Assembly (NCBI GenBank): GCA_028284265.1
Contig: JANQRZ010000006.1
Span: forward strand, 207,610 to 271,609
Source: Rhodothermales bacterium
GTDB lineage: Bacteria; Bacteroidota; Rhodothermia; Rhodothermales; JANQRZ01
Direction of reading: 5' to 3'
DNA length: 64,000 nucleotides
Numbering within the stretch: the first letter of the stretch is position 1; each line of letters starts with the position of its first letter. The notes beneath the pieces were generated by a model. That model did not search any database, was not told the DNA's origin, and saw only the letters and a program-made list of their open reading frames with translations. Of the stretch, positions 12,701 to 62,303 are shown piece after piece. Both the position numbers and the translations under genes were made by a program.

Positions 12701-13207
12701 GTGGCAGGCTACAAAGGACACCTCGCGGGCTCGCTCGCCTTCTTCGGCGTCTACCTCGCCGGACTCGCGTTCATTTTCTCCGTCGATCAGGCGTACCAGC
12801 AGTTCAGCGAGCTGGAGCTGATCGGCGTGCCGGTGGTGCTGTGCGGGCTGTGCCTGATGTTCGGGCTGTGGCCGGACGTAGATACCAACTCAAAGGGGCA
12901 GAACCTCTTCTACTCGATCTTCTTCGTCCTCGACGTGATCCTCATCATCGGGCGGCGGTTCGAGTGGGCAGCCTACCTCGGGCTTTTTGCGATTCTGCCG
13001 GTTCTCGGCAAGCACCGGGGCTGGACGCACACCTACTGGGCGATGCTGCTGATCCCGTCGCCGCTGCTCATCTTGCCGTACCTCCTTTTCCCCGACCGCC
13101 CGTTCGCCGGGCTACCGTTCTACGGCGCGGCGGTCGTGGGGTACTTCTCGCACCTCTTCATGGACGGCCTCGTGATCTCGTTCCCGCATCGCCGCGCCCG
13201 GCGCTAA
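12701..13207 (+). CDS. membrane-bound metal-dependent hydrolase (YdjM/DUF457-like)
   Basis: Multi-TM 168-aa protein with HRGWTHT and GYFSHLFMDG motifs. Uses a GTG start. Confidence 0.6.
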   Translation: MAGYKGHLAGSLAFFGVYLAGLAFIFSVDQAYQQFSELELIGVPVVLCGLCLMFGLWPDVDTNSKGQNLFYSIFFVLDVILIIGRRFEWAAYLGLFAILPVLGKHRGWTHTYWAMLLIPSPLLILPYLLFPDRPFAGLPFYGAAVVGYFSHLFMDGLVISFPHRRARR

Positions 13208-13896
13208 ACCTCAGCGCGGGCAGCGGGGCGATCGGCCTCGACCCAGCCGTCGTGCAGTTCGATGGTGCGGCTGCCGTAGGCAGTCCAGCGCTCAGAGTGC
13301 GTCACCTGAATCACCGTCACGCCGTCGTCTTCATTGAGCGCCTTGAACGCATCCATCACCTCCTGACCCTGCGACGAGTGGAGGTTGCCCGTCGGCTCGT
13401 CGGCGAGGATGAGGCGGGGGCGGATGATGAGCGCGCGTGCCACACCGACAAGCTGCTGCTGCCCGCCGGAGAGTTGGTGCGGGAAGAGGTCGGCCTTCGC
13501 CACCATGCCGAAGCGGTCGAGCATCTCGGCGACGCGGGCCTGCCGCTCGGCCTTCGGCGTCTTGGTGTAGAGCAGTGGCGTCTCTAGGTTCTCATAGACC
13601 GTCAACTCGTCGATCAGGTGGTAGGCTTGGAAGACGAAACCGATGTGCTCGCGGTGGAGCGCTGTCCGCTTCTTCTCGCTGAGTTGGTGGACTGGCTCGC
13701 CCTCGAAGTGGTACGATCCCTCGCTCGGCTCCTCCAGCATACCGACGATGTTCATCAGGGTGGACTTGCCGGAGCCGGACGGCCCTTGCACGGTGACGAA
13801 CTCGCCCTCGCGCACGGACAGGTCCACGTTACGGAGGACGTAGGTTTTCTGCTGGCCTTGCTTGTAGAATTTGCTGATGCCGCGTAGCTCGATCAT
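13204..13896 (-). CDS. ABC transporter ATP-binding protein, MacB/LolD/FtsE type
   Basis: Walker [10 protein letters not shown], signature LSGGQQQ, Walker [10 protein letters not shown]-loop VTH. Last gene of the operon that starts at 20800. It is the only ATPase of this type in the window. Confidence 0.95.
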
Positions 13897-20822: not shown

Positions 20823-20838
20823 CGCAAGCCATATGCCG
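20823..20838 (-). promoter_or_regulatory. sigma54-type -24/-12 promoter (copy 5)
   Basis: Minus strand reads CGGCATATGGCTTGCG, with the GG-N10-GC spacing of TGGCAC-N5-TTGC. Lies 23 nt upstream of the ATG at 20800. Confidence 0.65.
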
Positions 20839-20891: not shown

Positions 20892-20928
20892 TGTGCGTTT
20901 GCGCCCACCCGATGTGCGCAGGCGCGCA
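20892..20928 (-). promoter_or_regulatory. tandem palindromic upstream sites (putative enhancer/UAS, copy 5)
   Basis: Site A is tgtgcgtttgcgccca (20892..20907) and site B is tgtgcgcaggcgcgca (20913..20928). Their centres are 21 bp apart. The site A centre is 63 bp from the -24 GG. Confidence 0.55.
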
Positions 20929-24732: not shown

Positions 24733-24738
24733 TTAGGG

Positions 24739-27174: not shown

Positions 27175-27183
27175 GGCAGGATG

Positions 27184-29574
27184 TTATTCGTAGCGAAGCG
27201 CTTTGACCGGGTCGGCGGTCGCGGCGCGGAGGGCTTGGGTGCTGACCGTCACAAGCGCGAGGAGAAGCACAAGCGCACCCGCGATCACGAAGGGGAGGAG
27301 ACCCACGTCGATCCGGTAGGCGAAGCCGTCGAGCCAGCGCTCGGCAGCGAACCACGCCAGCGGCGCGGCCACCACGAAGCCGATCCCGACGAGCCGGAGG
27401 AAGTCCACCGAGAGCAGCCCGATGATGCTTGCCACGCCCGCGCCGAGCACCTTGCGGACGCCGATCTCCTTCGTCCGCCGCTCCGCCGTGTAAGCCGCCA
27501 GCCCGAGGAGGCCGAGGCACGCCACGAGAATGGCGAGCACGGCGAAGAGGCCGAGCGTCTGCATCAGGCGGCGGTCGGACTGATAGAGTTGGGCGAAGGT
27601 GTCATCGAGAAACTGGTACTCAAACGGATAGCGCGGCTCGAACTGCGCCCACGTCGCCTCTAGGTGCGCGAGCGCGCCCGCCACATCGTCTCCGGCGAGG
27701 CGCACAGTCAGGCTACCGTTGCTGCCGTCGAGCGCCATGAACAGCGGGGCTACCTCTTGATACATCGCCGCGATCTGGAAGTCCTCAACCACGCCGATCA
27801 CCGTGCCCTCGTCGATCTCGCCGGGCATGTCGAAGCGCTTGCCGACCGCGTCGGTCCAGCCGAGGCTGCGGACCATCGCTTGGTTGAGCACGATGGCACT
27901 GGAGTCTGCCGGTCGGGCGGGGTCGAAGAAGCGTCCCTCAGCGAGGGTTAGCCCATATGTCTCGATCAGGTCCGTGTCATCGAGAAAGAGTCCGGCCGCC
28001 GTCAAGCCTTCATCCTCTGGACGCCCCTCGGGAACGACGGTGTGTGTCGAGAACCCTTGGCCGGGGACGTTGTTGGTGAGGGTCGCGTGCGTGATGCCGG
28101 GATGTCGCAACGCTTCGGCCTTGAATGCAGCGGCCTGATCGCCAATGTCGGTTCTGCCCGTCGGTAGCGTGACGAGGTGGTCGCGGTCATACCCGGGGTT
28201 CTCATCCAGCACGAATTGCATCTGGCTGTAGACGAGAAACGTACCTGCCAACAGCGCAATCGAGGCGGCGAACTGAGCCGTGACGAGCACCTGCCGGAAC
28301 CGCCGCCCGCCGAAGGTTTGGCTCCCTTTGAGTATCCGCGCCGGGCGGAACGCCGAGAGCACGAACGCCGGATACGTCCCCGCCGCGAGGCCAACTAATA
28401 ACCCCAGCCCCGCGAGCGCGATCAGCACCGGCGGATCGGTCCACGCGAAGGCGGGCATGGCTTTGCCGACCAGTTGGTTGAACGCAGGCCGCACTGTCTC
28501 GACGAGGACCAGCGCTAGGCCAAGCCCGAGACCCACGAGCAGCAACGCCTCGCTGAGAAACTGGCCGATAAGCTGGGGCCGCCGCGCACCTACCGACTTC
28601 CGCACGCCGACCTCGACCGCCCGCCGACTGGCCCGCGCCGTGGAAAGGTTCATGAAGTTGACGCACGCGATCAGCAGGATCAGCAGGGCGACGACACTGA
28701 GCACATAGACGTAGGCCCGGTTGCCTTGCACCATGCTCCGCTGGTAGAGGATGTCCATCGAGCCGAGGTAGATGTCGCCGAGCGGCTGGAGGTAGAGGCG
28801 GTACTGGTCGGCGCGTTCGGCGAAGTGCTCGGTCATGAAGCCCGGCAGCTTAGCTTCGAGCGCCGCCGGATCGGCGTCGGGGCGGAGCAGCACATAGGTA
28901 TAGATCGACTGCGGACGCCATATCGTGAGCCAGTTGAAGTCCAGTCCGCCGTTGCCCGGCACCACGCTCGACCACGAGACGAACGAGCCGTACTGGAGGT
29001 GCGAGTGCGGCGGTGTGTCCTCCACGATGCCCGTGACGGTATAGGTCAGGTCGCCGAACCCGAGGAGCGTCTGGCCGATGGGGTCGTCACTGCCAAAGAA
29101 GGCTTCGGCAAGGCGTTCCGTGAGCACGACTGAGAGCGGAGCTTCGAGTGCCGTCGCCGGGTCGCCGCGCAACAGGTCGAAGTCGAAGACCTCGAACACG
29201 TTGCGGTCGGCGAAGGTCACGCCGGGTACCGTCAGCGATGTCTCGCCGCGCTCAAAGAGGAGGTCGCCCCACCACGGGAGGATGCGGACGGTGGCCTCGA
29301 CTTCGGGATAGTCAGCGACGAGTTGCGGCCCCATTGGACCAGACGAGAGCGCGTGCAACTCGGTCCCGCCGGTCGGGAGCGTGTGCACCTTGTTGAGCCG
29401 GTAGAGGCGGTCGTTCTCGCTGTGGAAGCGGTCGAAGCTGCGCTCGTCGCGCACCCACAGGGCGATCAGCAGGCAGCACGCCAGCCCGACGGCCAGCCCT
29501 GCCACATTCAGCCCGGCATAGCCTTTCTGCCGACGGAGTTGACGGAGCGCGACGGTGAGGTAGTTCTTCAGCAT
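27184..29574 (-). CDS. duplicated FtsX/MacB-type ABC permease (paralogue 4)
   Basis: 796 aa. N-terminus MLKNYLTVALRQLRRQKGYAGLNVAGLAVGLACC, two FtsX modules, C-terminus ADPVKALRYE. First gene after promoter copy 4. Confidence 0.9.
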   Translation of the reverse strand: MLKNYLTVALRQLRRQKGYAGLNVAGLAVGLACCLLIALWVRDERSFDRFHSENDRLYRLNKVHTLPTGGTELHALSSGPMGPQLVADYPEVEATVRILPWWGDLLFERGETSLTVPGVTFADRNVFEVFDFDLLRGDPATALEAPLSVVLTERLAEAFFGSDDPIGQTLLGFGDLTYTVTGIVEDTPPHSHLQYGSFVSWSSVVPGNGGLDFNWLTIWRPQSIYTYVLLRPDADPAALEAKLPGFMTEHFAERADQYRLYLQPLGDIYLGSMDILYQRSMVQGNRAYVYVLSVVALLILLIACVNFMNLSTARASRRAVEVGVRKSVGARRPQLIGQFLSEALLLVGLGLGLALVLVETVRPAFNQLVGKAMPAFAWTDPPVLIALAGLGLLVGLAAGTYPAFVLSAFRPARILKGSQTFGGRRFRQVLVTAQFAASIALLAGTFLVYSQMQFVLDENPGYDRDHLVTLPTGRTDIGDQAAAFKAEALRHPGITHATLTNNVPGQGFSTHTVVPEGRPEDEGLTAAGLFLDDTDLIETYGLTLAEGRFFDPARPADSSAIVLNQAMVRSLGWTDAVGKRFDMPGEIDEGTVIGVVEDFQIAAMYQEVAPLFMALDGSNGSLTVRLAGDDVAGALAHLEATWAQFEPRYPFEYQFLDDTFAQLYQSDRRLMQTLGLFAVLAILVACLGLLGLAAYTAERRTKEIGVRKVLGAGVASIIGLLSVDFLRLVGIGFVVAAPLAWFAAERWLDGFAYRIDVGLLPFVIAGALVLLLALVTVSTQALRAATADPVKALRYE

Positions 29575-29607
29575 GGCGAGAGGTCAGGAGAGTAGGCTCC
29601 TGTCTTG

Positions 29608-29623
29608 CGCAAGCGATATGCCA
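29608..29623 (-). promoter_or_regulatory. sigma54-type -24/-12 promoter (copy 4)
   Basis: Minus strand reads TGGCATATCGCTTGCG. Lies 34 nt upstream of the ATG at 29574. Confidence 0.7.
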
Positions 29624-29676
29624 TGAGAGGCTCACCGTCCGAAGTGGCTCATGCAGCGTACCGATCCATTGCCCGG

Positions 29677-29713
29677 TGCGCGCTGCCGCACACTCGGTGG
29701 GCGCTAGCGCGCA
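29677..29713 (-). promoter_or_regulatory. tandem palindromic upstream sites (copy 4)
   Basis: Site A is tgcgcgctgccgcaca (29677..29692) and site B is tgggcgctagcgcgca (29698..29713). Centres are 21 bp apart. Site A is 63 bp from the -24 GG. The module ends 9 nt from the stop of the preceding permease gene. Confidence 0.55.
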
Positions 29714-29722
29714 GTGCCAGCG

Positions 29723-32101
29723 CTATTCGTAGCGAAGCGCTTTGACCGGATCGGTGGTGGCAGCACGGAGGGCTTGGGTGCTCACGGTCACGAGCGCGAT
29801 GGCGAGGGCCGCGAGTCCGGCGACAACGAAGACACCGGGGCCGAGGTCCACGCGGTAGGCGAACCCGTCGAGCCAGCGGCTCATCGCCAGCCATGCCAGC
29901 GGCGTCGCCACGACGAAGCCTATGAGCACGAGCCGGACGAAGTCCTTCGATAGCAGGGCGATCACACTCCCCACACTCGCGCCGAGCACCTTGCGGACGC
30001 CGATCTCCTTCGTGCGCTGCTCGGCGGCAAAGGCCGCGAGGCCGAACAGCCCGAGGCACGCGATCAGCACCGCCAGCGCGGCGAAGAGGCGAGCCAGCGC
30101 ACTCGTGCGCGCTTCGGCCCGGTAGAGATGGTTGAAGGTCTCGTCGAAGAAGGAGTACGTGAACGGATGCGCCGGGTCGAACGTCGCCCACGTCGCTTCG
30201 AGGGCGGCGAGCGTTTCCTCAACTTCGCCCGGTCGGATGCGCACCGAGACCGTCAACAGCCACCCCGGCGGCGGGATGAACAGCATGATCGGCTCGACGG
30301 TCTCGCGGAGGGACCGGTAGTGGAAGTCTTTCACGACGCCCACCACTGCCCCAACTGGTCGGTCTATCGCGGGCATCGCAATGGTCTCCGAAAACGGATC
30401 GTCCCAGCCAAGCGCACGGACGGCGGTCTCGCTCACGAGGTAGGTGCTGCTGTCCGTGGCGAAGTCTTCAGAGAACCCACGCCCGGCGACGATCTCCATC
30501 TCAAACGTGTCCAGAAAGTCGGGGTCGATGACGAGCATCCGCATCTCCGGTACCTCGTCGTCTGGGACGCCGGAGGGGGTGAAGGGAATGCCCCAGTCGC
30601 CGCCTCCGGGGAGGTTGCCCGAGGCCGTCACGTCCACCACGCCGGGATGCTGAAGCAAGGCTTCCTTGAGCGTCCCGAGGCGCTCCGTGAGGGCTTGGTC
30701 CCGCACGGGGATGGTGACGATTTGCTCGGTCTGAAACCCGAGGTCGGCGGACTCGATGAACCGGACCTGCTGCTGGACCACGCCGACCGCGACGAGCAGG
30801 AACACCGACACGGTGAACTGGACCACGACGAGGCTTCGCCGCAGCCACGCCCCACCAGTCGCACTGGCGGCTCCTTTGAGCACCCGCGCCGGACGGAACC
30901 GCGAGAGGACGAACGCTGGATAGCTCCCCGCCAGCACGCCGATGCCGAATCCAGCCACGAGCAGCGCGAGCCAGAACACAGGCTCCTGAATCGGGAGGGT
31001 AAGCTCGACGCCCGCGAGTTGGTTGAACGAGGGGAGGAGCGTCTGCGTCAGGAGCAGCGCGAGGCCGAGGCTGAGTACGATGAGCAGAAGCGCCTCGCCG
31101 ATGAACTGCCGTGCGAGGGCCGTGCGCGGGGCACCGATCGCCTTGCGGACGCCCACCTCCGTCGCCCGCCGCGCCGAGCGGGCCGTCGTCAGGTTGACGA
31201 AATTGACGACCGCCATCAGCAGGACGAGCAGCGCGAGGACAGCAAACGCGGAGACATACCCGAGGTCGCCTGTCGGCCCGATCTCGCGGTGGAGGTCAGA
31301 GTGGAGGTAGATCTCTGTCAGCGGCTGGAGGTGCGGAGTGATAGCGGAGAGTCCGCCCTCGGCTGGGTTTTGCGCTTGGAGTGCTTCGGTTATCACGGCC
31401 TCGCTCTCCGCGAGGTCGGCGGCATCGTCGAGCAGGAGGTAGGTATAGAATTGCGTCCGATTCCATAGCGTCGGCATCTCGGACGTATCCGACGCGAGCG
31501 AGATGAGATAGGAAAACGAGAAGTGGGAGGTAGTCGGTGGATCTTTCAGGATGCCCGTCACCCGGTACGTCTCGTCGTTGTTGAGCACCAGCGACTGCCC
31601 GACGGGATCGGCCTCGCCGAAGTAGCGAGCGGCGAGCGTTTCGGTGAGGACCATCGTATTCGGCTCCGTGAGCGCCGTCGTGGCATCACCCTGTACGAAC
31701 TCGAAGCTGAACACATCGAAGACATTCCCGTCGGCGAAGAGGCCACCTGCCTCATACGCCTGCACGTCGCCTCGCTCGAAAAGCTGGCTATTGAGCAGCC
31801 GGAACCGCGTCATCGTCTCCACCTGCGGGACCGCGTTGAGGACGGTTGGCCCCCACGGGCCGGGCACTTTCGCAAGGCCGGGGTCCCCGCCTCCATAACT
31901 TGCCTCCTCGTCGAAGATGGCGAGCCGGACGATGCGGTCCTTGTTTGCATGGTGCTGGTCGTAGCTCAGTTCGCCATAGACATAGAGCAGGATCGCCAAG
32001 CAGCACGCCATCCCCACGGCCAGCCCGGTTACGTTGAGGAGCGCGTAGCCTTTCTGGCGACGCAGATTGCGAAGGGCAACGACGAGGTAGTTCTTCAGCA
32101 T
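29723..32101 (-). CDS. duplicated FtsX/MacB-type ABC permease (paralogue 5)
   Basis: 792 aa. N-terminus MLKNYLVVALRNLRRQKGYALLNVTGLAVGMACC, two FtsX modules, C-terminus TDPVKALRYE. Confidence 0.9.
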   Translation of the reverse strand: MLKNYLVVALRNLRRQKGYALLNVTGLAVGMACCLAILLYVYGELSYDQHHANKDRIVRLAIFDEEASYGGGDPGLAKVPGPWGPTVLNAVPQVETMTRFRLLNSQLFERGDVQAYEAGGLFADGNVFDVFSFEFVQGDATTALTEPNTMVLTETLAARYFGEADPVGQSLVLNNDETYRVTGILKDPPTTSHFSFSYLISLASDTSEMPTLWNRTQFYTYLLLDDAADLAESEAVITEALQAQNPAEGGLSAITPHLQPLTEIYLHSDLHREIGPTGDLGYVSAFAVLALLVLLMAVVNFVNLTTARSARRATEVGVRKAIGAPRTALARQFIGEALLLIVLSLGLALLLTQTLLPSFNQLAGVELTLPIQEPVFWLALLVAGFGIGVLAGSYPAFVLSRFRPARVLKGAASATGGAWLRRSLVVVQFTVSVFLLVAVGVVQQQVRFIESADLGFQTEQIVTIPVRDQALTERLGTLKEALLQHPGVVDVTASGNLPGGGDWGIPFTPSGVPDDEVPEMRMLVIDPDFLDTFEMEIVAGRGFSEDFATDSSTYLVSETAVRALGWDDPFSETIAMPAIDRPVGAVVGVVKDFHYRSLRETVEPIMLFIPPPGWLLTVSVRIRPGEVEETLAALEATWATFDPAHPFTYSFFDETFNHLYRAEARTSALARLFAALAVLIACLGLFGLAAFAAEQRTKEIGVRKVLGASVGSVIALLSKDFVRLVLIGFVVATPLAWLAMSRWLDGFAYRVDLGPGVFVVAGLAALAIALVTVSTQALRAATTDPVKALRYE

Positions 32102-32108
32102 GGGGTTC

Positions 32109-34538
32109 TCATTCGTAGCGAAGCGCTTTGACTGGATCAGTCGTAGCCGTGCGGAGGGCCTGGATACTTACGGTTGCTAGGGCAACGAGGAGAGCGAGCG
32201 CTCCGGCCAGCAGGAAGACGCGGGGGCCGAGGTCGATGCGAGCTGCGAAGCTGTCGAGCCACTGCCGCATCGCGAGGTAGCCCACGGGCGCGGCGATAGC
32301 GATGGCGATGCCGACCAGCACGACGAAGTCTTTGGAGAGCAGCAGCACGAGTTGCGCCGCCGAGGCTCCCAGCACCTTGCGGATGCCGACCTCTTTCGTC
32401 CGCCGGGCCGCTGCGAGGGTTGCCACGCCGAACAAACCGAGGCCCGCGATGAGCACAGCGAAGAGAGCTCCGTAGCCGATGATCTGGCTCCACCGCTCCT
32501 CGCTCTGGTAGAGTTGGTCCATGTCAGCATCAAGGAAGCTGTACTGGAACGGCACGTCGTGGGTGAGACTTGCCCACGTAGCGCGCAGTTGGTCCAACGT
32601 TGCCGGTATCGCATCGGGCTGGATGCGGACCAGCACGTTCAGCACCGGGTCGCTCGACGTGGTGTAGAGCACGGCGGGTGCAACCTCCGCCTGCAAGGCC
32701 TCGAAGTGGAAGTCCCGGACCACCCCGACAATCGTCGGGTTTTGCAGACCGCCCCACTCGACCGGAAGCTGCCGCCCGACCGGGTTGTCCCAGCCGAAGT
32801 CGCGCGCGAGGGCTTCATTGACGAGGATGCTGCTCGTCGAATCGCTGGCGCGTTGCGGGTCGAGGTCGCGGCCTTGGATCAGGTCCATGCGGAGGGTTTC
32901 GAGGTAGTTGTCCGCGATACGCAGCGACACGACTTGCTTCAGCTCGCCCTCGTACCGGAAGCCACGCCGCCAGAGGCCGCGCCCGAAGGCGAAGTTGGAG
33001 CCGCTCACGCGGTCGATGGTCGGCTCGGCCTCGGCGAGCGAGCGGTAGCGGTCGAGCACGGTGTCGCTGTCCAGCCCGCGCGTCGGGATGACGACGACCT
33101 GCTCGCCCTGATAGCCGAGGTTGTGCGTCCGCAGGTGGCGAAGCTGCTGCGCCATCACGAGCGTGCTCACGATCAGGAATACCGAGAGGGTGAATTGCGC
33201 CGTCACCAGTCCATTCGCCAGCAGGCTGCGTCCGCCGACCTGCGCCCGGTTGCGCAGCGAGGCTACCGGCTGGAGGCGGGCCAACACGAGCGCCGGGTAG
33301 CCGCCCGCGATGAGGCTTGTCATGGCGAGCAAGACGAGCAGCGCGCCCCCTGCCCACAGCCCTTCAACTGCTCCGAAGTGTAGCGTCTTCCCGGCCAACT
33401 CATTGAAGACCGGCAGGAAAAGTGCAGCCAAGCCGATGCCGATGCCGAGGGCTAGCGCGCTCAGGAGCACGGCCTCGCCCCAGAACTGCGCGGCGAGTTG
33501 GCGGGGCTGCGCGCCCATCGCCTTCCGCACGCCGACCTCTTTCGCTCGCCGGGTCGAGCGCCCGAGAGCGAGAAGGGTGAAGTTGATGCAGGCGATCAGC
33601 AACACGGCCAGCGCGATGGCACCGAGGATGTAGGCGTAGCGCGGATCACTCGGTGGCGTGATGCCGGGGGGGACCTCCGGGTTGAGATGGATGTCGGTCA
33701 TCGGCTGGAGGCGGTAGACTGCAGGCGGGCCGTCGGTGGTCAGGACGCCGTTAGCGCGCATCTGGTCGAATATTGAGCCGAGGTGCGTTTCCATGAACTG
33801 AGGCATCTGCGTCTGCACGTTCGCAGCATCCGCTCCCTCGCGCAACATGACGTAGGTGATCGAGCGCGTTGCCCCCCAGCTATCCACGGCACGCTGCATG
33901 GCGCCGAGCCGCCGGACGAAGAGGTCGTAGGGAATCAAGACCTCGAACTGGACGCTGGAGCCTGTGGGTGGCGGAGCCGCTACGCCCGTCACGAGGAGGT
34001 CCACATAGCCCTCGCCGAGGCGCAGTTCGATCCGCTGGCCCAAAGCATCCGCCTCGCCGAAATAGCGGCGGGCCACCGACTCGGTGAGCACGACCGAGTA
34101 CGGGCCGGCGAGCGCGGTCTCCGGCCTGCCGCTCAGGAGTGGAAAGGAGAACACGTCGAAGAAAGCGGGGTCGGCAGCGAGGATGCCATCCTGCTCGACC
34201 ATCGTCTCACCGTGCCGAACGGTGAGAGCCGCATTGGGAAAGTCGAGCCTAACAAAGGCTTCGACTTCGGGGAACGTAGCCTGCATCGCAGGGCCTGCTG
34301 GAATCGGCATCGACAGTTCCCGGTCGAAGGGCGAGCTTGGCTCTACGACGTCGCGATAGAGCCGGTGGATGCGGTCAGCGTTGGTATGGAACTGGTCGTA
34401 GCTCAACTCGTCGCGCACGAACAGGAGCACGAGGAGGCAGAAGGCCAGCCCGATGGCGAGGCTGAACACGTTGATGGCCCCGAAGAGCTTCTGGCGTCCG
34501 AGTTGACGGAGCGCGGTGGAGAGGTAGTGCTTCAGCAT
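32109..34538 (-). CDS. duplicated FtsX/MacB-type ABC permease (paralogue 6)
   Basis: Start trimmed to MLKHYLSTALRQLGRQKLFG (ATG at 34538), which lies 2 nt after the stop of paralogue 7. The ORF-track extension to 34712 overlaps the upstream gene. Confidence 0.9.
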   Translation of the reverse strand: MLKHYLSTALRQLGRQKLFGAINVFSLAIGLAFCLLVLLFVRDELSYDQFHTNADRIHRLYRDVVEPSSPFDRELSMPIPAGPAMQATFPEVEAFVRLDFPNAALTVRHGETMVEQDGILAADPAFFDVFSFPLLSGRPETALAGPYSVVLTESVARRYFGEADALGQRIELRLGEGYVDLLVTGVAAPPPTGSSVQFEVLIPYDLFVRRLGAMQRAVDSWGATRSITYVMLREGADAANVQTQMPQFMETHLGSIFDQMRANGVLTTDGPPAVYRLQPMTDIHLNPEVPPGITPPSDPRYAYILGAIALAVLLIACINFTLLALGRSTRRAKEVGVRKAMGAQPRQLAAQFWGEAVLLSALALGIGIGLAALFLPVFNELAGKTLHFGAVEGLWAGGALLVLLAMTSLIAGGYPALVLARLQPVASLRNRAQVGGRSLLANGLVTAQFTLSVFLIVSTLVMAQQLRHLRTHNLGYQGEQVVVIPTRGLDSDTVLDRYRSLAEAEPTIDRVSGSNFAFGRGLWRRGFRYEGELKQVVSLRIADNYLETLRMDLIQGRDLDPQRASDSTSSILVNEALARDFGWDNPVGRQLPVEWGGLQNPTIVGVVRDFHFEALQAEVAPAVLYTTSSDPVLNVLVRIQPDAIPATLDQLRATWASLTHDVPFQYSFLDADMDQLYQSEERWSQIIGYGALFAVLIAGLGLFGVATLAAARRTKEVGIRKVLGASAAQLVLLLSKDFVVLVGIAIAIAAPVGYLAMRQWLDSFAARIDLGPRVFLLAGALALLVALATVSIQALRTATTDPVKALRYE

Positions 34539-34540
34539 GG

Positions 34541-36910
34541 CTATTCGTAGCGGAGAGCTTTGACGGGATCGGTGGTGGCGGCACGAAGGGCCTGCGTGCT
34601 CACCGTCAGCAGGGCGATGGCGAAGAGGAGCACGCCCGCGATGAGGAACGGCTCCGGCCCGAGGCCGATGCGGTAGGCGAACCCGTCGAGCCACTGGCTG
34701 AGTCCAAACCACACGAGTGGCACCGCGATCACGAAGGCGACCGCGACGAGTGCGACGAAATCTTTGGCGAGCAGCAGCACGAGGTTCGGCACCGTTGCGC
34801 CGAGCACCTTCCGTACGCCGACTTCCTTCGTCCGGCGCTCCGCCGTGAATGAGGCGAGGCCGAACAGCCCAAGGCAGGCGACGAAGATGGCGAGGAAGGC
34901 GAAGATGCTCACGATCCGCCCGAGCTGCTCCTCGTTGCGGTAGAGTCGGTCGTACACGTCATCGAGGAAGCGGTACGAGAATGGGCGGTGTGCAGCGAAC
35001 TGGCCCCACACGGCTTCGAGATGGTCCATGCCGGCCCGCGTGTCGCCGGGCGCGAGGCGGACGGCGAGATGGAACACGTTGCCGGGGTCGTACCAGATGG
35101 CGAGTGGCTCGATTTGCTCGTGGAGCGAGCGGAAGTGGAAGTCCTTCGCCACACCGATCACCTCGCCCCAGCGCGAGTCCACCGCCACGCGCCGCCCGAT
35201 GGCCTCTGTCGGCGTCCAGCCGAGCCGTTCGACCGTCGTCTCATTGATGACGAACTGGTAGTTGGCTGAGTCCGGTTCGGGCGGTGTCGCGGGGAAGCCA
35301 CGTCCAGCCACGAGCGTTAACCCTAGCCCATCCGTCACGTTCGGATCAGAAGGGAGACCCTTGATAAGAAACCCCTCATCTTCGCCCATGCCTTCCGTGC
35401 GGAAGCCGGAAGTCCAGCCTAGCTGGCCGGGAACCTGGTTAATACCAGTCGTGGCAACTATCGCTGGACTCTGGGTGATGGCATTCTGCATCGCGGTAAC
35501 CTGTTCCTGCAGGATCGAGTCGGAGAGGGGGAGCACCACGAGGTGCTCCTTGTCAAACCCGAGTTGCTGTGCATTCAGGTACCTAAGCTGGCTCATCACC
35601 ACGAGCGTCCCGGCGATGAGGAACGCTGAGATACCGAACTGGAGCACGACGAGGCTCTTCCGCAGCCACGATGAGCCGGAGGATGTGGTACCCCGTCCGC
35701 GAAGCACGCGCGCCGGTTGGAAGCCGGAGAGGTAGAGCGCTGGGTAGCTTCCTGCCACCACACTCACGACGAGGAAGATGCTGACGATCAGCGCGACGAG
35801 TCCCGGCTCGGCGAGCGTCCCAAAGGTCAGCGCCTTGCCGCTCAGTTCATTAAACCACGGCAGCCCGATCCCGACGAGCGCCACAGCCAGTCCCAACCCG
35901 GCTAGTGTGAGCAGCGCCGACTCACTGAAAAACTGCCCGACGAGCTGCCCGCGGAACGCCCCGAGTGACTTCCGCAGGCCGACCTCCTTCGCCCGCTGCC
36001 CGGCGCGTGCCGTGGCGAGGTTCATGTAGTTGATGCACGCGATCAGGAGAATCAGCAGCGCTACCGTCGTGAAGCCGATCACATAGGTCATATCGCCTGT
36101 CGCGTCGATGTCGTAGGCGATGTCGCTGGCGAGGTGGATGTCTGGTAGTGGCTGGAGTGTGAGGATGCGCGAGTGCTCGCCTGCTGACCTCCGTTCCGCA
36201 ATGAACGCATCGATCTTCGCCTGCAATGGGGCGGCGGCGGTGGCACTCGGCAGGCGAATGAAGGTGAAAAAGTTGGCTGAGCCCCACTGCTCGTTGTTGG
36301 CCCAGTGCTCCCGCGAGGCAAATGAGGCGAGGAAGTCGAAGCGAAAGTGCGAGTTTGTGGGCACGTCCGCCATCACGCCCGTCACCTCGAACTCTTGGTC
36401 GTTGTTTCGGATGATGGTCTGCCCGACGGGATCGGTGTCGCCGAAGAACTTCTCCGCCGTTGATTCGGTCAGCACGACGGTGTTGGGTCGGGTCAGCGCT
36501 GTCTGTGCGTTGCCTGCCAGCAACTCGAACCCGTCGAAGACCTCGAAGAACGTCGAGTCGGCGAAGTAGAAGCGGTTATCGTCGAAGATGCGCCCGCCTG
36601 CCCGAACGACTCCGCCATGTGCCTCGATCCGCGTGGTTGTCTCCACCTCCGGAAACTCGCGCCTCAGGAGCGGGGCCACGATGTTCGGACTGATAGCGAT
36701 CGTTGCATCGAGTTGGGGAACGACCATGTTGACGCGGTAGACGGCGTCGGCGTCCTCGTGGAAGCGGTCGTAGCTCAGTTCATCGCGGACGAAAAGCAGC
36801 AGAAAGAGGCAGCACGCGACGCCGACAGCGAGGCCGGTGACGTTGAGCGCGGCGTAGCCGGGCTGACGGCGAAGGGTGCGGAGGGCGATGCGGAGATAGT
36901 TGAGCAGCAT
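34541..36910 (-). CDS. duplicated FtsX/MacB-type ABC permease (paralogue 7)
   Basis: Start trimmed to MLLNYLRIALRTLRRQPGYAALNVTGLAVGVACC (ATG at 36910). The ORF-track extension to 37063 runs through the promoter/UAS. Confidence 0.9.
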   Translation of the reverse strand: MLLNYLRIALRTLRRQPGYAALNVTGLAVGVACCLFLLLFVRDELSYDRFHEDADAVYRVNMVVPQLDATIAISPNIVAPLLRREFPEVETTTRIEAHGGVVRAGGRIFDDNRFYFADSTFFEVFDGFELLAGNAQTALTRPNTVVLTESTAEKFFGDTDPVGQTIIRNNDQEFEVTGVMADVPTNSHFRFDFLASFASREHWANNEQWGSANFFTFIRLPSATAAAPLQAKIDAFIAERRSAGEHSRILTLQPLPDIHLASDIAYDIDATGDMTYVIGFTTVALLILLIACINYMNLATARAGQRAKEVGLRKSLGAFRGQLVGQFFSESALLTLAGLGLAVALVGIGLPWFNELSGKALTFGTLAEPGLVALIVSIFLVVSVVAGSYPALYLSGFQPARVLRGRGTTSSGSSWLRKSLVVLQFGISAFLIAGTLVVMSQLRYLNAQQLGFDKEHLVVLPLSDSILQEQVTAMQNAITQSPAIVATTGINQVPGQLGWTSGFRTEGMGEDEGFLIKGLPSDPNVTDGLGLTLVAGRGFPATPPEPDSANYQFVINETTVERLGWTPTEAIGRRVAVDSRWGEVIGVAKDFHFRSLHEQIEPLAIWYDPGNVFHLAVRLAPGDTRAGMDHLEAVWGQFAAHRPFSYRFLDDVYDRLYRNEEQLGRIVSIFAFLAIFVACLGLFGLASFTAERRTKEVGVRKVLGATVPNLVLLLAKDFVALVAVAFVIAVPLVWFGLSQWLDGFAYRIGLGPEPFLIAGVLLFAIALLTVSTQALRAATTDPVKALRYE

Positions 36911-36941
36911 GAAGGCAGGAGGATGGGAGTGACTCCCATCG

Positions 36942-36957
36942 CGCAAGCCATATGCCA
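36942..36957 (-). promoter_or_regulatory. sigma54-type -24/-12 promoter (copy 1)
   Basis: Minus strand reads TGGCATATGGCTTGCG. Lies 32 nt upstream of the ATG at 36910. Confidence 0.7.
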
Positions 36958-37021
36958 CCTCACGCCCGTCTAATGCGATGCGCGTTGGGCGGCTTGAGAG
37001 CCTGCCGCACGCTTCAGGCAC

Positions 37022-37058
37022 TGTGCGCCAGCGCACAGCCTGTGTGCGCCTACGCGCA
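37022..37058 (-). promoter_or_regulatory. tandem palindromic upstream sites (copy 1)
   Basis: Site A tgtgcgccagcgcaca (37022..37037) is a perfect 7+7 palindrome. Site B is tgtgcgcctacgcgca (37043..37058). Centres are 21 bp apart. Site A is 74 bp from the -24 GG. The module ends 1 nt from the LysR stop codon. Confidence 0.6.
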
Positions 37059-37059
37059 G

Positions 37060-37962
37060 TCACACGCCATTGGTGTAGAGGATGGTCTGCCGGCGAAGCC
37101 GGTCTGCGACGGGTGGGAGATCGCCGTCACGCCAGAGCAGGCAGAGTGAGGTCATCGCCCTTACGTGATCGGGCACGTCGACCATCGGGCGGGCGATGAC
37201 GCCATCGGGTAGGTGCTGTCCGGCGGTCTCGGGAGCGATTGTGATCCCTACGCCTGCTGCCACTAGCACGAGCGTGGCGGCCAAGGGCTCGGCTTCCTCC
37301 ACGATGCGGGGTTGAAATCCTGCCGACTGGCACAGCGCCGAGACCGTTCCCATAAAACTTCCCACATGGTGCCGGGGAGCGAGCACGAACGATTCCCGCG
37401 CCAACTCAGTGAGTGGCACCGCCACCTGCGAGGCGAGGCGGTGATCGGCTGGAAGAAGTGCAATGAGGGGTTCGGCTCCCAGCGGCTCGATGGCTAGTCC
37501 ATTAGTGTCGGCAAACGGCCCGCGCCCGATTCCGATGTCGACTTCCCGCGCCCGAAGGGCACCGATGATCTCCTCTTGGAAACGCTCCACAAGATGAATT
37601 GACGTGCCGGGTGCTTCATCGCGGAAGGCCCGAAGAAGGACGGGGAGCAACCGCGCCGAGGCAGAACTCACATACCCGAGGCGGAGCGTACCGGACCGCC
37701 CGTCGGCGGCGGCTTGTGCGCTCTCGCGGGCACGGTCCACCCAGTGGAGTACCTCGCGCGCGTCGCGCAGGAAGGCGCGTCCACTGACCGTCAGGTTGGC
37801 CCCTCGCGTTGACCGGTCGAAGAGCTGTGTCCCGAGGTCGGCTTCGAGGCGTTGTATTTGCCGAGATAGGGCCGACTGCGACAGGTGGACCCGCAGCGCC
37901 GCCCGTCCGAAGTGCTGCTCCTCGGCTACGGCGACGAAACATTCGATCTGGCGAAGCTCCAT
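37060..37962 (-). CDS. LysR-family transcriptional regulator
   Basis: N-terminal wHTH MELRQIECFVAVAEEQHFGRAALRVHLSQSALSRQIQRLEADLG plus a LysR substrate-binding domain. Confidence 0.9.
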   Translation of the reverse strand: MELRQIECFVAVAEEQHFGRAALRVHLSQSALSRQIQRLEADLGTQLFDRSTRGANLTVSGRAFLRDAREVLHWVDRARESAQAAADGRSGTLRLGYVSSASARLLPVLLRAFRDEAPGTSIHLVERFQEEIIGALRAREVDIGIGRGPFADTNGLAIEPLGAEPLIALLPADHRLASQVAVPLTELARESFVLAPRHHVGSFMGTVSALCQSAGFQPRIVEEAEPLAATLVLVAAGVGITIAPETAGQHLPDGVIARPMVDVPDHVRAMTSLCLLWRDGDLPPVADRLRRQTILYTNGV

Positions 37963-38078
37963 AGCATATCATGCGTCTCGTGCATCGTGAGTCGCAAGAT
38001 ATGCATTGAAGTAAACAGTTGGGCATTGGCTCCGTAGTCCCTCGCTCATGCCGCTTGCCGACCCGACTCTCTGTTTCC

Positions 38079-39587
38079 ATGCCTGAACAACTTCATCCTG
38101 CATCGCTCCTGCTAGCCCTCCTCATGGTGCTCGCCGGATGCCGTCCTACCGCCCTTGCTCAGTCGGAATCGCCGACGCTTACGATGAAAGAAGAGATCGT
38201 GGTGTGGGGCGACAGCGTCAGCGCTGCATTCGATCGCGGCATTTTCAACGCACCCGCCAACCGCGCGCGAGGTTCAGAAGGGGCAGTTCCCGTGGAGGTG
38301 GTCCGCTTCCGGCGCACTGCGGGTGCCCCGGACAGCGTCCCGCCGATTTTCTATTTGCAGGGCGGTCCTGGTTATGGCACCATCGACGATTTTCTGGATG
38401 GCTCTGGATTCTACGTCTGGGAGGTGCAGCCCCTGCTCACCATCACCGATGTGGTCTTCGTCGGCCAGCGTGGATTTGGCCCTAGTCTGATGCCGTGTGA
38501 AGATAGCGAGGCGCTGACGCTGGCCGAGGCGTTCGGCAATGCGACTCGGGTGCAGGCGAGGCAGGAGGCGCTTAGGCGCTGTCGTCAGAGGTGGGAGGCT
38601 GAGGGGTGCGACCTCGCGGGGATCAATGTGGTCGAAGTCGCTGCCGACGTGGCCGACGTGGTGCGATTACTTGGCTACGATCAGGTTCAGCTCTATGGCA
38701 AGAGCTTCGGTTCGCATCAGGGTATGGCAATCCTCCGCTACCATCCCGACCTGGTTGCCCGCGCTACGCTCGGCGCGCTTGAAGGGCCGGACCACACCTA
38801 CGATTCGCCTGATGGAGTATTGGAGACGCTGGAACGGATCGCCACTTCAGCAGAGGCGTCCGACGCACTTCGGCCTCACATTCCCGAAGGCGGCCTCCTC
38901 GCGGCCTACCGTGACCTGATTCGCCGCGCCGATGCGGCACCCATCACGGCTCAGACCGAGCACCCGGATACCGAGGAATCGATTACGGTGCCCCTCGACG
39001 GCAATGCCCTCCGCGAACTGACGCTCGGCGTGTCGCGGGGGCTAAAATTCCGCTATCTGATGCCCGCGTGGCCGCTCGACCTATTGGAGATGCTGAACGG
39101 CGATTTCTACTGGGCGGGTCGCCGTATCACGGGCCTTCACACGTCAAACCGCCTTCGCAGCGCCGGGTGGTACGCCTTCGACTGCGCCTCTGGTATCACC
39201 GCCGAGCGAGGTGCTCGCTATCGCCAGTCCATCGCTGCCGACCTGCTCGGGCCGATCTGGCAGGAGTACGATACCGACTGTGCCGTGTGGGACGCCGACC
39301 TCGGTGATGACTTCCGCACCGGGTTCGCGACCAATGTGCCGACGCTGCTCCTGCACGGCACTTGGGACATGAATACCCCGTACACGAACGCGCTCGATCT
39401 GCTGCCCGCGTTCCACAACCACCACTTCGTCACCATCGAAGGCGGCTCGCACGGGGCGGTTCGTGAAGCTGCAGAAGTGAATCCAGTCTTCGAGGCGGGG
39501 CTATATCACTGGTTTGCAACAGGCGATGCTAGCCGGTTGCCTGAGCGTGTTGTCTTGCCGCCTGTGGAATGGGAAGCACCGGAGTAG
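38079..39587 (+). CDS. alpha/beta-hydrolase lipoprotein (prolyl/tripeptidyl aminopeptidase-like)
   Basis: Lipobox LLMVLAGC and nucleophile elbow GKSFGSH. The start is the ATG at 38079; the ORF track began at 38019. Divergent from the LysR gene. Confidence 0.75.
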   Translation: MPEQLHPASLLLALLMVLAGCRPTALAQSESPTLTMKEEIVVWGDSVSAAFDRGIFNAPANRARGSEGAVPVEVVRFRRTAGAPDSVPPIFYLQGGPGYGTIDDFLDGSGFYVWEVQPLLTITDVVFVGQRGFGPSLMPCEDSEALTLAEAFGNATRVQARQEALRRCRQRWEAEGCDLAGINVVEVAADVADVVRLLGYDQVQLYGKSFGSHQGMAILRYHPDLVARATLGALEGPDHTYDSPDGVLETLERIATSAEASDALRPHIPEGGLLAAYRDLIRRADAAPITAQTEHPDTEESITVPLDGNALRELTLGVSRGLKFRYLMPAWPLDLLEMLNGDFYWAGRRITGLHTSNRLRSAGWYAFDCASGITAERGARYRQSIAADLLGPIWQEYDTDCAVWDADLGDDFRTGFATNVPTLLLHGTWDMNTPYTNALDLLPAFHNHHFVTIEGGSHGAVREAAEVNPVFEAGLYHWFATGDASRLPERVVLPPVEWEAPE

Positions 39588-50335: not shown

Positions 50336-52153
50336 TCAGTCCGCACGGAGTCGGGATAGCGCAGCGTCGAGTTCGGGGTCCCGACCGGCGATCACAGCGT
50401 TGGCGTCCAACGGGACGACCACATCCGGGACGATGCCTCGGTCGGGTCCCGGTTCAGACGGGCGCGAGGCGAAGAGCGGCACGTCCACCGAGACGCCCGA
50501 GTGGGGCAGCGTCAGGAATGCCATCTGTCCGGCATTGAGTCCCTTTAGCGAGCCGCCCGTTTCCTGTCCCACGAGGAGCGCCACTCCAGCCTCTTTGATC
50601 TGCTTGGCGAGGTAGAACGTCGCCGATGAGGCCGCCGCGTCGATTAGGACCGCCGTCGGTCCTTGGAAGGCATCGTCGGCGGGTGACAGGGTGACGGGCG
50701 GACGGCGCGGCATCGGGTACGTGCCATCTCCGGCAGGTGTTACCCGGTCTGAGAGGTCGTAGAAGTCGGAGGACCACGAGCGGACGTAGGGGCGCACGGT
50801 CTCAGGTACGAGGTCGTAGGCCGTTGAGCCGTTCCAGAAGGTGGCGGTCACCGGCTCGGTGAGGAGGTGGCGAAGCAGGAGCGTTGCGGCCGCGTCCATC
50901 CCGCCGGCGGTACCGCGCAGATCGACCACCAGCCGCCCGGCTCCCTCGGTGTTCATCTGCCGGAAGGCGTCGATCAGCCACGCATCATAGTCGCGCTCCA
51001 TCGAGAACGTGGCGAAGCTGCCGATCTTGAGATAGGCCGTCCCATCGTCCAGCATCTCGAACCGGAGCATATCGCCGCGCGAGCGGGGGAGCGAGGCGTC
51101 CCGCGTCCACAGCACCTCGCGCCGGGCCTCCTGCGTCATGCGGGGAACGACGAGGCTTTGCATCCCCTCGTCGGGCCGCCGGGCCATGAGGGTCAGGTCG
51201 CCCTCGGGTTGGAAGAGGAGGCTGTAGATCACGTCGAAGCGCTCGGCCGGGGCGAGTAAGTCCCACAGGTAGAGCCGAAAGCGCCGGTCGCCGTCGCGCT
51301 TTCCATCGCCCGAGGCGAAGGGGAGCAGAGCCTCGATTATATCAGGCACGGGGCGTCCATCCAGCGCCCGAATCTCGGTACCCGGTGGCAGCGCGCGGTC
51401 GGGGGTGGCATCGCCCGTCACGATCATCCGGTCGCCGACGAGCCGGAAGGTGAACGGCACGCGGTCGGGACGGTGGTAGAGCGCCGCCTCGGTGAGCGGC
51501 TGCTGGTTGTACATGCTGACCTGCGTATGCCCATCGCGTAGCGCCGCCACGGCGCGGGCGACGGCGAGATAGACCGAGGGCATCGGAATCGCGTCGCCGT
51601 ACTGCGCGCCGAGCGCGTCGGCGGTCTCGTCCAGTCGGTCGAAAATACGGGCGAGGTCCTTGGCGGTGTTGTGGAGCGTCAAGCCGGGGTGCAGCGCGTA
51701 GAGGCCTTCGCGGAGGACGGTGAGGTCTTCAGTCAATTCGGCCTGCGACAGTACCGGGACCGGCAGTCCGGTCTGGGGGCCATCGAAGGCGCGGCGGTCG
51801 GCCGTCATCTCGCCGGGCAGCAGGAGTCGGTTGCTGCCGCGCTCCCACCGGACCTCGGCTCCCGGCGATTCGATCACCACTTTGTATCCCACCTCCTCGG
51901 TGCCATCCGGGAAGTCGAGGCGTGCCGAGTAGACGCCGTTGCCATCGTCATCCTTCAAAGGCAGCGAGCGCTCCCACGACAGCGGGGCCGTGTCACCCCG
52001 AACGCCGACCACTGCATCGGGCGCGACCGTTTCGCTCGCCATGTCGATCTCGACCGAGACCGACTGGGCGTGCGCGAGGTGGAGCAGGCCGAGGCCGAGG
52101 AAAAGAAGGAGCCAGCGTGCAACGGGCAGCATTGGGCGATGGAGCGGAGGCAT
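50336..52153 (-). CDS. S41-family (tail-specific/C-terminal processing type) peptidase with an N-terminal CBM20-like module
   Basis: Start trimmed to MPPLHRPMLPVARWLLLFLGLGLLHLAHAQ (signal peptide; alternative start 52132). The S41-like C-terminal region includes VVDLRGTAGG and IDAAASSATFYLA...GQETGGS. The N-terminal module ends in RWERGSNR. Confidence 0.65.
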   Translation of the reverse strand: MPPLHRPMLPVARWLLLFLGLGLLHLAHAQSVSVEIDMASETVAPDAVVGVRGDTAPLSWERSLPLKDDDGNGVYSARLDFPDGTEEVGYKVVIESPGAEVRWERGSNRLLLPGEMTADRRAFDGPQTGLPVPVLSQAELTEDLTVLREGLYALHPGLTLHNTAKDLARIFDRLDETADALGAQYGDAIPMPSVYLAVARAVAALRDGHTQVSMYNQQPLTEAALYHRPDRVPFTFRLVGDRMIVTGDATPDRALPPGTEIRALDGRPVPDIIEALLPFASGDGKRDGDRRFRLYLWDLLAPAERFDVIYSLLFQPEGDLTLMARRPDEGMQSLVVPRMTQEARREVLWTRDASLPRSRGDMLRFEMLDDGTAYLKIGSFATFSMERDYDAWLIDAFRQMNTEGAGRLVVDLRGTAGGMDAAATLLLRHLLTEPVTATFWNGSTAYDLVPETVRPYVRSWSSDFYDLSDRVTPAGDGTYPMPRRPPVTLSPADDAFQGPTAVLIDAAASSATFYLAKQIKEAGVALLVGQETGGSLKGLNAGQMAFLTLPHSGVSVDVPLFASRPSEPGPDRGIVPDVVVPLDANAVIAGRDPELDAALSRLRAD

Positions 52154-54843: not shown

Positions 54844-54859
54844 CGCAAGCGATATGCCG
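54844..54859 (-). promoter_or_regulatory. sigma54-type -24/-12 promoter (copy 2)
   Basis: Minus strand reads CGGCATATCGCTTGCG. Lies 31 nt upstream of the ATG at 54813. Confidence 0.7.
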
Positions 54860-54924: not shown

Positions 54925-54961
54925 TGTGCGCTGGCGCACACCGGTTGTGCGTTAGCGCGCA
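54925..54961 (-). promoter_or_regulatory. tandem palindromic upstream sites (copy 2)
   Basis: Site A tgtgcgctggcgcaca (54925..54940) is a perfect palindrome. Site B is tgtgcgttagcgcgca (54946..54961). Centres are 21 bp apart. Site A is 75 bp from the -24 GG. The module ends 7 nt from the preceding stop codon. Confidence 0.6.
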
Positions 54962-62186: not shown

Positions 62187-62202
62187 CACAAGCCATATGC
62201 CA
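62187..62202 (-). promoter_or_regulatory. sigma54-type -24/-12 promoter (copy 3, GT instead of GC at -12)
   Basis: Minus strand reads TGGCATATGGCTTGTG. Lies 34 nt upstream of the ATG at 62153. Confidence 0.6.
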
Positions 62203-62266: not shown

Positions 62267-62303
62267 TGTGCGCTGGCGCACACCCGCTGGGCGCTGACGC
62301 GCA
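62267..62303 (-). promoter_or_regulatory. tandem palindromic upstream sites (copy 3)
   Basis: Site A tgtgcgctggcgcaca (62267..62282) is a perfect palindrome. Site B is tgggcgctgacgcgca (62288..62303). Centres are 21 bp apart. Site A is 74 bp from the -24 GG. The module ends 12 nt from the preceding stop codon. Confidence 0.6.

Follow-up and report, generated by a model that had tools for sequence, protein, structure and literature searches.

Five sigma-54 promoters in the genome of an uncultured Rhodothermales bacterium are each preceded by a 37-bp unit made of two 16-bp palindromes, which poses the question of what binds there and what the arrangement controls. The stretch of DNA analysed, called the window below, comprises 64,000 nucleotides of contig JANQRZ010000006.1, and most of the genes behind the five promoters encode large ABC (ATP-binding cassette) permeases. 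To open a promoter, sigma-54 holoenzyme depends on an AAA+ enhancer-binding protein. Judging from their arrangement, we think it very probable that the 37-bp units are the upstream activating sequence (UAS, or enhancer) sites of one predicted bacterial enhancer-binding protein (bEBP) that acts at these promoters.

The window holds five tandem pairs of 16-bp palindromes, one pair per sigma-54 promoter. Reading the sequence bore out the positions that an initial annotation had given for the units (37022..37058, 54925..54961, 62267..62303, 29677..29713 and 20892..20928), and the distance between site A, proximal to the promoter, and the distal site B measured 21 bp from centre to centre in all five copies, as claimed there. 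The sites are the following:

Copy 1, site A: 37022..37037, unstranded; promoter-proximal palindrome TGTGCGCCAGCGCACA, centre 74 bp from the -24 GG.
Copy 1, site B: 37043..37058, unstranded; promoter-distal palindrome TGTGCGCCTACGCGCA, ending 2 bp short of the stop codon of the LysR gene that lies upstream (37060-37962).
Copy 2: site A 54925-54940 and site B 54946-54961, unstranded; within a 155-bp gap separating two permease genes.
Copy 3: site A 62267-62282 and site B 62288-62303, unstranded.
Copy 4: site A 29677-29692 and site B 29698-29713, unstranded; 63-bp spacing class.
Copy 5: site A 20892-20907 and site B 20913-20928, unstranded; 63-bp spacing class.

Site A had been described as TGTGCGC-NN-GCGCACA, perfect in three copies. 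A search with TGTGCGCNNGCGCACA indeed returned perfect matches at 37022, 54925 and 62267, and the remaining seven sites of the five units carry one to three mismatches; site A at 29677 and at 20892 has two mismatches each. The form proposed for site B, TG(T/G)GCGC-NN-(G/A)CGCGCA, fits four of the five copies and fails at 54946, where position 7 is a T.

With up to three mismatches allowed per site, single sites are barely enriched (16 in the window against 8.8 expected). Pairs of sites at the same threshold occur five times at a distance of exactly 21 bp and not once at 16-20 or 22-31 bp, and no 21-bp pair arose in 200 dinucleotide shuffles of the window. When the 64 kb were searched without regard to the motif, for any pair of similar 16-bp palindromes at a distance of 20-22 bp, only the same five places came up. 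No Rfam family was matched in a scan of the whole window.

The promoters themselves are sigma-54 elements of the -24/-12 type, TGGCATATSGCTTGCG (GG-N10-GC; TGGCAY-N5-TTGCW). This sequence has five matches in the window and no others, all on the minus strand and pointing leftward:

36942..36957, minus strand: sigma-54 promoter TGGCATATGGCTTGCG; drives the permease genes 34541-36910, about 32109-34537 and 29723-32101.
54844..54859, minus strand: sigma-54 promoter CGGCATATCGCTTGCG; drives the permease gene 52426-54813, with an S41 peptidase gene (50336-52309) next.
62187..62202, minus strand: sigma-54 promoter TGGCATATGGCTTGTG; drives the permease genes 59772-62153, 57348-59762 and 54969-57338.
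29608..29623, minus strand: sigma-54 promoter TGGCATATCGCTTGCG; drives the permease genes 27184-29574, 24739-27174 and 22360-24732, with a glyoxalase-family gene (21881-22354) and a PD40 gene (20949-21851) downstream in the same unit.
20823..20838, minus strand: sigma-54 promoter CGGCATATGGCTTGCG; drives a beta-lactamase-family hydrolase gene (19358-20776) and the gene of a 606-aa protein (17531-19351), and probably also those of a small protein (17230-17499), a permease (14774-17206), a DUF4097 protein (13942-14733) and an ABC ATPase (13204-13896).

In the order 37022, 54925, 62267, 29677 and 20892, the centre of site A lies 74, 75, 74, 63 and 63 bp from the centre of the -24 GG, exactly as first described, and the linkers between enhancer and promoter measure 64, 65, 64, 53 and 53 bp. 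This places the two site centres at about -87 and -108 or at about -98 and -119. A scan with a generic sigma-54 consensus gave no excess over shuffles; the five promoters thus form a specific family and do not belong to a dense background of sigma-54 sites. One lone sigma-54-like match, AGGCATCCGGGTTGCA, at 6400-6415 (plus strand) beside a citrate synthase gene is not accompanied by an enhancer pair and is within chance expectation.

Does the same arrangement occur in other genomes? A strict IUPAC pattern of the whole unit was scanned over one genome per species (185,579 species, 596 Gb). It matched three times, always in a metagenome-assembled genome (MAG) of the Rhodothermales and always with YGGCATATGSCTTGCG at the same distance, and every strict match of this genome-wide search was thus linked to a promoter. 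A looser pattern, applied to metagenome contigs, gave 15 matches, four of which are real (in L007, L013, L014 and L010; these labels denote contigs and loci examined) and the others fall in coding sequence or other repeats. The nearest homologues of one of the window permeases, at 83%, 79% and 78% identity, come from Rhodothermaceae or Rhodothermales MAGs, and the contigs of the nearest homologues (L026-L029) contained eight more pairs of enhancer and promoter. In total, this gives 19 pairs, five in the window and 14 at further Rhodothermales promoters. The two sites keep a distance of 21 bp in all 19, and the proximal centre lies either 62-63 bp (12 pairs) or 73-75 bp (7 pairs) from the GG, with nothing in between. 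The promoter element is present at all 14 related promoters, with the variants TTGTG/TTGTA and GGCATGCGGCTTGCG. The helix face had been said to be preserved across the two spacing classes, and the return of the same two classes at these 14 promoters is in keeping with this.

The distribution of the pairs speaks to a first alternative, namely that the dyads are structural or selfish palindromes (REP-like repeats or hairpin terminators of the upstream gene) which lie near promoters by chance. Three of the five units begin 4-12 bp past the stop codon of an upstream permease gene, and such GC-rich dyads could form hairpins. However, units also follow unrelated genes (LysR, PD40), and their distance is quantised to the promoter, not to the upstream stop. 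A terminator scan of 20000-38500, which covers three of the five units, found none at the units, whose spacers (5 bp) and flanks are free of T-runs. Pairs never occur away from a sigma-54 promoter, whether in the window or among the three strict matches in 596 Gb, and are thus no generic repeat unrelated to promoters. We regard this alternative as very unlikely.

Not every enhancer is limited to two sites. At 2058-2158 of L003, which equals 4857-4956 of L028, five tandem sites with an exact 21-bp period (CTGCGCGCTGGCGCACATCCG four times, then TGTGCGCTGGCGCACA) stand before one permease gene. This array is a natural expansion of the enhancer and fits cooperative oligomerisation. At another position of L028 (9853-9889), the upstream permease gene and the distal site TGAGCGCCAGCGCACA overlap, in that the TGA stop codon of the gene supplies the first three bases of the site; here, the promoter is the variant GGCATGCGGCTTGCG, at a distance of 73 bp from the proximal site.

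Among the five window copies, identity reaches 78% in the 37-bp unit and 90% in the 16-bp promoter. In the linker, in the 40 bp upstream and in the 40 bp downstream, it is 27-31%, which is the random level at 65% GC. Since the blocks are conserved, the flanks random and the length of the linker kept, selection therefore acts on two sequence blocks and on their distance, in two classes one helical turn apart. The same figures count against the view that the similarity is the remnant of a recent duplication of promoter plus permease gene, in which case the dyads would be unselected. The downstream genes are paralogues, as this view would have it, but they are just 39-46% identical, and DNA adjoining the dyads and promoters has drifted to the random level. 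Moreover, one copy drives a non-paralogous gene, that of the beta-lactamase-family hydrolase, and the blocks persist between MAGs in which the orthologues of the window permeases show 76-83% identity to them. A mere remnant of duplication is therefore highly implausible.

The statement of the initial annotation that the sequence between UAS and promoter is not conserved holds overall, given the identities above, with one exception. In 11 of the 16 tabulated promoters of the family, a short T-run, TTT(T), is set into CGTTTTG or CGTTTCGG and lies 20 +/- 2 bp before the T of TGGCA, on its upstream side. It occurs in two of the five window copies (54879-54882 and 20858-20861, both at minus-strand promoters) and elsewhere in L001, L002, L003, L007, L013, L014, L026 and L027, and it is the only conserved feature of the linker. 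At 65-69% GC the T-run is not due to chance, though several of the promoters are orthologous. No AT-rich stretch resembling an IHF site was found in the linkers of the Rhodothermales family. By analogy with the CCCTTTT of the IHF-independent promoter glnAp2, the T-run may act as an intrinsic bend.

The 32 sites of the same 16 promoters show which bases are conserved. Read in the direction of transcription, the consensus of the distal site is C-TGCGCGC-YR-GCGCACA and that of the proximal site G-TG(G/T)GCGC-NN-GCGCACA-C. The conserved core is GCGC-NN-GCGC, bordered by TG and CA.

This consensus bears on two further alternatives. The first is that the units are UAS elements of the NifA type (TGT-N10-ACA), bound by a NifA orthologue. 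Three of the site A copies in the window do read TGT-N10-ACA, but TGT is present in just 7 of the 32 sites: the distal site has TGC in 15 of 16 cases and the proximal site TGG in 9 of 16. The conserved inner GCGC-NN-GCGC is precisely the part that the NifA pattern leaves unspecified. About 40 open reading frames (ORFs) of the window were scanned; they include no nif genes and no bEBP of the GAF type, and the targets are permeases of ABC exporters and a serine hydrolase. The caution voiced early on, that the NifA pattern is degenerate and nothing related to nif is nearby, was thus well placed, and a NifA orthologue as the activator is barely conceivable.

The second is that the dyads are operators of a non-AAA+ regulator, such as a repressor of the PadR family, which would modulate the promoters, with a bEBP acting from other sites or from solution. 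In Acidobacteria, ADOP permeases are accompanied by PadR proteins, a PadR gene adjoins a MacB_PCD gene inside the related array of L026, and the sites bear a formal resemblance to NTGT-N10-ACAN. The canonical operator of PadR proteins is ATGT-N8-10-ACAT (PMC3506622). Most of the sites here, however, have TGC or TGG instead of TGT, and their outer bases are C/G-TG-Y, not ATGT. The sites lie at -87 to -120, more than 50 bp upstream of the -24 element and without overlapping the promoter, a position from which a repressor would not block the polymerase, and the one-turn quantisation of the promoter distance would have no rationale for a repressor. None of the approximately 40 window ORFs scanned is a PadR gene. 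In two loci of other phyla, L010 and L021, the operator stands beside bEBP genes, and none of the ORFs called or scanned at either locus is a PadR gene. A regulator of this kind is improbable, if somewhat less so than the NifA orthologue.

The geometry is what a bEBP enhancer would be expected to have. As a rule, the binding sites of these proteins lie some 100-150 bp upstream from the promoter, which the protein contacts through a loop of the DNA (PMC7057263). Two dyads that are two turns apart, at a promoter distance kept in whole turns, are predicted by bEBP looping, and this whole-turn geometry is required by no other mechanism that we considered. The occurrence of the units at promoters only, their centres at -87/-108 or -98/-119, the conserved blocks and the recurring spacing classes all support the reading of the units as bEBP enhancers, which the annotation had first put forward.

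How does this element compare with known enhancers? Among the closest known cases is the NtrC enhancer of glnAp2 in enteric bacteria, which the element, like other tandem bEBP sites, would resemble in the way it works: there too, a response-regulator bEBP has two high-affinity dyads on the same helical face, ahead of a sigma-54 promoter. The NtrC dyad measures 17 bp (TGCACC-N5-GGTGCA), and about 32 bp (three turns) separate sites I and II, which are centred near -140 and -108. In the Rhodothermales element, by contrast, the dyad is 16 bp (hexamers 4 bp apart, with a GCGC core), the sites are 21 bp or two turns apart and nearer the promoter, there are two linker classes, and the targets have nothing to do with nitrogen. 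At glnAp2, IHF is not needed and a T-rich intrinsic bend, CCCTTTT, lies between enhancer and promoter (PMC2709558). Extra low-affinity sites accompany the two high-affinity ones (PMC5159524).

Like the Rhodothermales element, the NifA UAS has a 16-bp dyad with the outer TG..CA, situated about 100 bp ahead of its sigma-54 promoter. It differs in that here the TGT half is unconserved and the inner GCGC-NN-GCGC conserved, and in that there are always two sites and no nif context. A third, possible parallel is the UAS of rhizobial dctA, where Ledebur and Nixon reportedly described in 1992 tandem DctD sites that are both needed for full activation and are bound cooperatively. These are again two adjacent dyads for an NtrC-family response regulator, and the targets differ (C4-dicarboxylate uptake there, exporter permeases here).

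We propose the following model. Two dimers of one bEBP with a Fis-type helix-turn-helix would bind both 16-bp dyads (TGNGCGC-NN-GCGCACA; the distal one always CTGCGCG...). With the dyads on the same face of the DNA and separated by two helical turns, the activated dimers would nucleate an AAA+ ring. The linker of 53 or 64/65 bp would then loop, and the ring would remodel the closed complex of the sigma-54 holoenzyme. Here, it would be the length of the linker and not its sequence that is selected, with two values one turn apart that keep the activator on the promoter face, and the short T-run about 20 bp upstream of TGGCA, which most family members have, may supply a bend in place of an IHF site. 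The activator is possibly a response regulator of the NtrC family paired with a Reg_prop sensor kinase. In this model, the five enhancers would bring at least 12 ADOP-like permeases, a single ATPase, the beta-lactamase-family hydrolase and accessory envelope proteins under one signal, and the regulon is probably an envelope or antimicrobial stress response.

Which protein could be the activator? A candidate type comes from L010. Here, the operator lies 180 bp past the stop of a gene for a 470-aa protein with Response_reg, Sigma54_activat and HTH_8 domains. Its first site, CTGCGCGCTGGCGCACA, is identical to the Rhodothermales distal consensus at 17 of 17 positions, and the second site follows 21 bp on. 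The operator stands upstream of the promoter AGGCACAGGATTTGCG (AGGCAC-N5-TTGCG) and a CheY-like gene, and the bEBP gene is preceded by the gene of a 1274-aa Reg_prop/HisKA/HATPase kinase. Homologues of the L010 bEBP with 58-69% identity were then compared, which made seven loci in all. In L021, behind a bEBP gene that is 65% identical, there are three perfect dyads of the TGCRCG-ATTC-CGYGCA type (TGCACG-ATTC-CGTGCA, TGCGCG-ATTC-CGCGCA and GTGCGGATCCGCAC) with a 20-bp period, followed by a sigma-54 promoter. L020, L019 and L022 contain looser repeats of the same operator type. In four of the seven loci, a Reg_prop and/or Y_Y_Y sensor kinase of 1270-1510 aa adjoins the bEBP gene:

L010, 5739-11736: bEBP gene and sensor kinase gene.
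L021, 4878-10773: bEBP gene and sensor kinase gene.
L022, 5462-11419: bEBP gene and sensor kinase gene.
L024, 6152-11416: bEBP gene and sensor kinase gene.

The first gene past the operator encodes a CheY-like response regulator of about 125 aa in L010 and L019; in L021 and L022, such a gene is found several kb further downstream.

These loci of the FCB group (L010, L021, L020, L019 and L022), known from sequence alone, thus resemble the Rhodothermales family in having tandem TGYRCG-N4-CGYRCA dyads with a period of 20-21 bp upstream of a sigma-54 promoter. They differ in that the sites immediately follow the bEBP gene and, in L010 and L019, drive the small CheY-like gene. Their linkers contain an AT-rich, IHF-like stretch (in all but L022), the promoter distance in L010 is about 98 bp, and they belong to other phyla. 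Judged from the adjacency of operator and gene, this shows that bEBPs using this operator type exist, without naming the protein that acts in the Rhodothermales.

Several results weigh against our reading of the units, or against this candidate. No bEBP was found in the window by Pfam on the approximately 40 ORFs, and no GAFTGA or Walker A motif in any window ORF of at least 80 aa by regular-expression search. Within 10 kb of four related permease arrays there is no bEBP either, and the expectation that an AAA+ (GAFTGA) gene would adjoin one of the units was thereby disappointed for the window and these arrays. The period of the operator in L019 and L021 is 20 bp, not 21, and two of the seven loci, L024 and L030, have no operator. 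The bEBPs of the L010 type come from other phyla, with Handelsmanbacteria and Gemmatimonadetes as the nearest named matches. Finally, we infer the binding of a bEBP as well as its identity and inducing signal, the binding solely from the geometry of the sites. A 3.3-Mb contig with a bEBP homologue had no operator, and a search for Rhodothermales bEBPs with the HTH_8 domain alone retrieved only fragments of up to 90 aa. Weighing these points, we consider a member of the L010-type clade a possible activator in the Rhodothermales, at rather less than even likelihood.

What would such an activator control? Four of the five promoters drive genes for proteins of about 790 aa with two MacB_PCD + FtsX modules. 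There are 12 such permease paralogues in the window. Their genes run head to tail, with enhancer and promoter only before the first gene of each run and the rest following within about 10 bp. The fifth promoter has the beta-lactamase-family serine hydrolase as its first gene, followed by the 606-aa protein, which has no assigned function, a protein of about 90 aa, a permease, a DUF4097/LiaG-like protein and the ABC ATPase. The transcription units also encode a glyoxalase/bleomycin-resistance-family protein, a PD40 protein and an S41 peptidase, and Por_Secre_tail proteins are present in related arrays. The ATPase is the only ABC ATPase in the window:

13204..13896, minus strand: MacB/LolD-type ABC ATPase, presumed to be the partner of the 12 permease paralogues.

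The region 13204-63926 of the window therefore sets 12 duplicated permease genes against one ATPase gene, and the pattern of many permeases and one ATPase is also seen in related contigs. In L002, L007, L013 and L027, an operon of a small protein and the ATPase has its own enhancer and promoter, which puts the shared ATPase in the same regulon. The small protein, conserved and about 90-99 aa long (MSQICVPIPPI...TIDVDVVIDG...), has no match in Pfam or NCBIfam. Its gene always directly precedes that of a permease and/or that of the single ABC ATPase and, in several MAGs, comes first behind an enhancer and sigma-54 promoter of its own:

Window 17230-17499, minus strand: small protein of about 90-99 aa.
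L002 2214-2498, minus strand: the same small protein.
L027 16317-16616: the same small protein.
L028 17227-17511: the same small protein.

The permeases recall the ADOP family (TIGR03434), whose members are also about 790 aa long, have two MacB_PCD + FtsX modules and form large paralogous arrays with few ATPases. Those of the window match the TIGR03434 model over their full length with 304-344 bits, below the curated cut-off of 622.3, and are therefore ADOP-like but not ADOP members by the NCBI threshold. Within the related permease array of L026, a PadR gene (114 aa) and the gene of a 415-aa MacB_PCD protein lie on the opposite strand (6164-7759, minus strand); this pair recalls the PadR-ADOP pairing of Acidobacteria.

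Some further features surround the promoters of the window. Ahead of the hydrolase operon, a third, weak palindrome, GGTGCGTCCGGGCACA (three mismatches), separates the promoter from the enhancer at 20860-20875; it is 32 bp away from site A and is kept in the orthologous promoter of L001. It may be a low-affinity site or just reflect the conservation between orthologues. In four of the five copies, inverted repeats of differing sequence (e.g. GATGGGAG-TCA-CTCCCATC) begin 2-6 bp past the promoter:

36916-36940, minus strand: inverted repeat downstream of the -12 element.
62160-62185, minus strand: inverted repeat downstream of the -12 element.
29585-29605, minus strand: inverted repeat downstream of the -12 element.
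20790-20820, minus strand: inverted repeat downstream of the -12 element.

A hairpin in the 5' leader was considered as a part of the element and rejected, as the folding z-scores over the 16 family promoters range inconsistently from -2.7 to +1.6. No Shine-Dalgarno sequences precede the start codons at 36910, 54813, 62153, 29574 and 20776 (minus strand). The leaders at these five starts are about 20-35 nt long and C/T-rich, with a recurrent TCCTGCC directly before the ATG, and leaders without Shine-Dalgarno sequences fit translation initiation of the Bacteroidota type. Both this absence and the Por_Secre_tail proteins of the related arrays agree with the origin of the window in the Rhodothermales.

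Large arrays of duplicated orphan permeases of the FtsX/MacB type are abundant in the Rhodothermales, other Bacteroidota, Acidobacteria and Gemmatimonadetes. The sharply defined enhancer and promoter offer a direct way into their function and control. A survey with position-specific scoring matrices published in 2025 reported that predicted sigma-54 promoters are enriched before FtsX-like (COG0577) ABC permeases in Bacteroidia, Opitutia and gamma-Proteobacteria, and termed this the first such link (PMC12316311). That survey stays at the level of the promoter; it names no enhancer or activator and mentions neither the Rhodothermales nor an array of many permeases with one ATPase. We found no description in the literature of the enhancer, of its conservation in the Rhodothermales or of a dozen permeases being regulated jointly with one ATPase. 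The element is most probably a switch of an ordinary type, unsurprising in its mechanism, with an enhancer that has not been described before.

Taken together, enhancer and promoter delimit a regulon from sequence alone, and the prediction is that one signal co-induces all the permeases and the single ATPase. The 37-bp unit offers a bait with which the activator may be pulled down. The natural series of linkers (53 versus 64/65 bp) and of site numbers (two versus five) provides a test set for the rules of phase and cooperativity at sigma-54 enhancers, in an organism without an obvious IHF site. We tentatively propose, as a view that may well turn out wrong, that one two-component bEBP (an NtrC-family regulator with a giant Reg_prop/Y_Y_Y kinase) governs the system of one ATPase and many permeases, through an operator type that is conserved across phyla of the FCB group, at a distance kept in integer turns and with a strength tuned by the number of sites, from two to five. 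If a single two-component bEBP does act in this way, ADOP-like permease arrays would have their first regulatory logic: an inducible envelope or antimicrobial-defence regulon would switch on a dozen alternative permeases together with the ATPase that they share.

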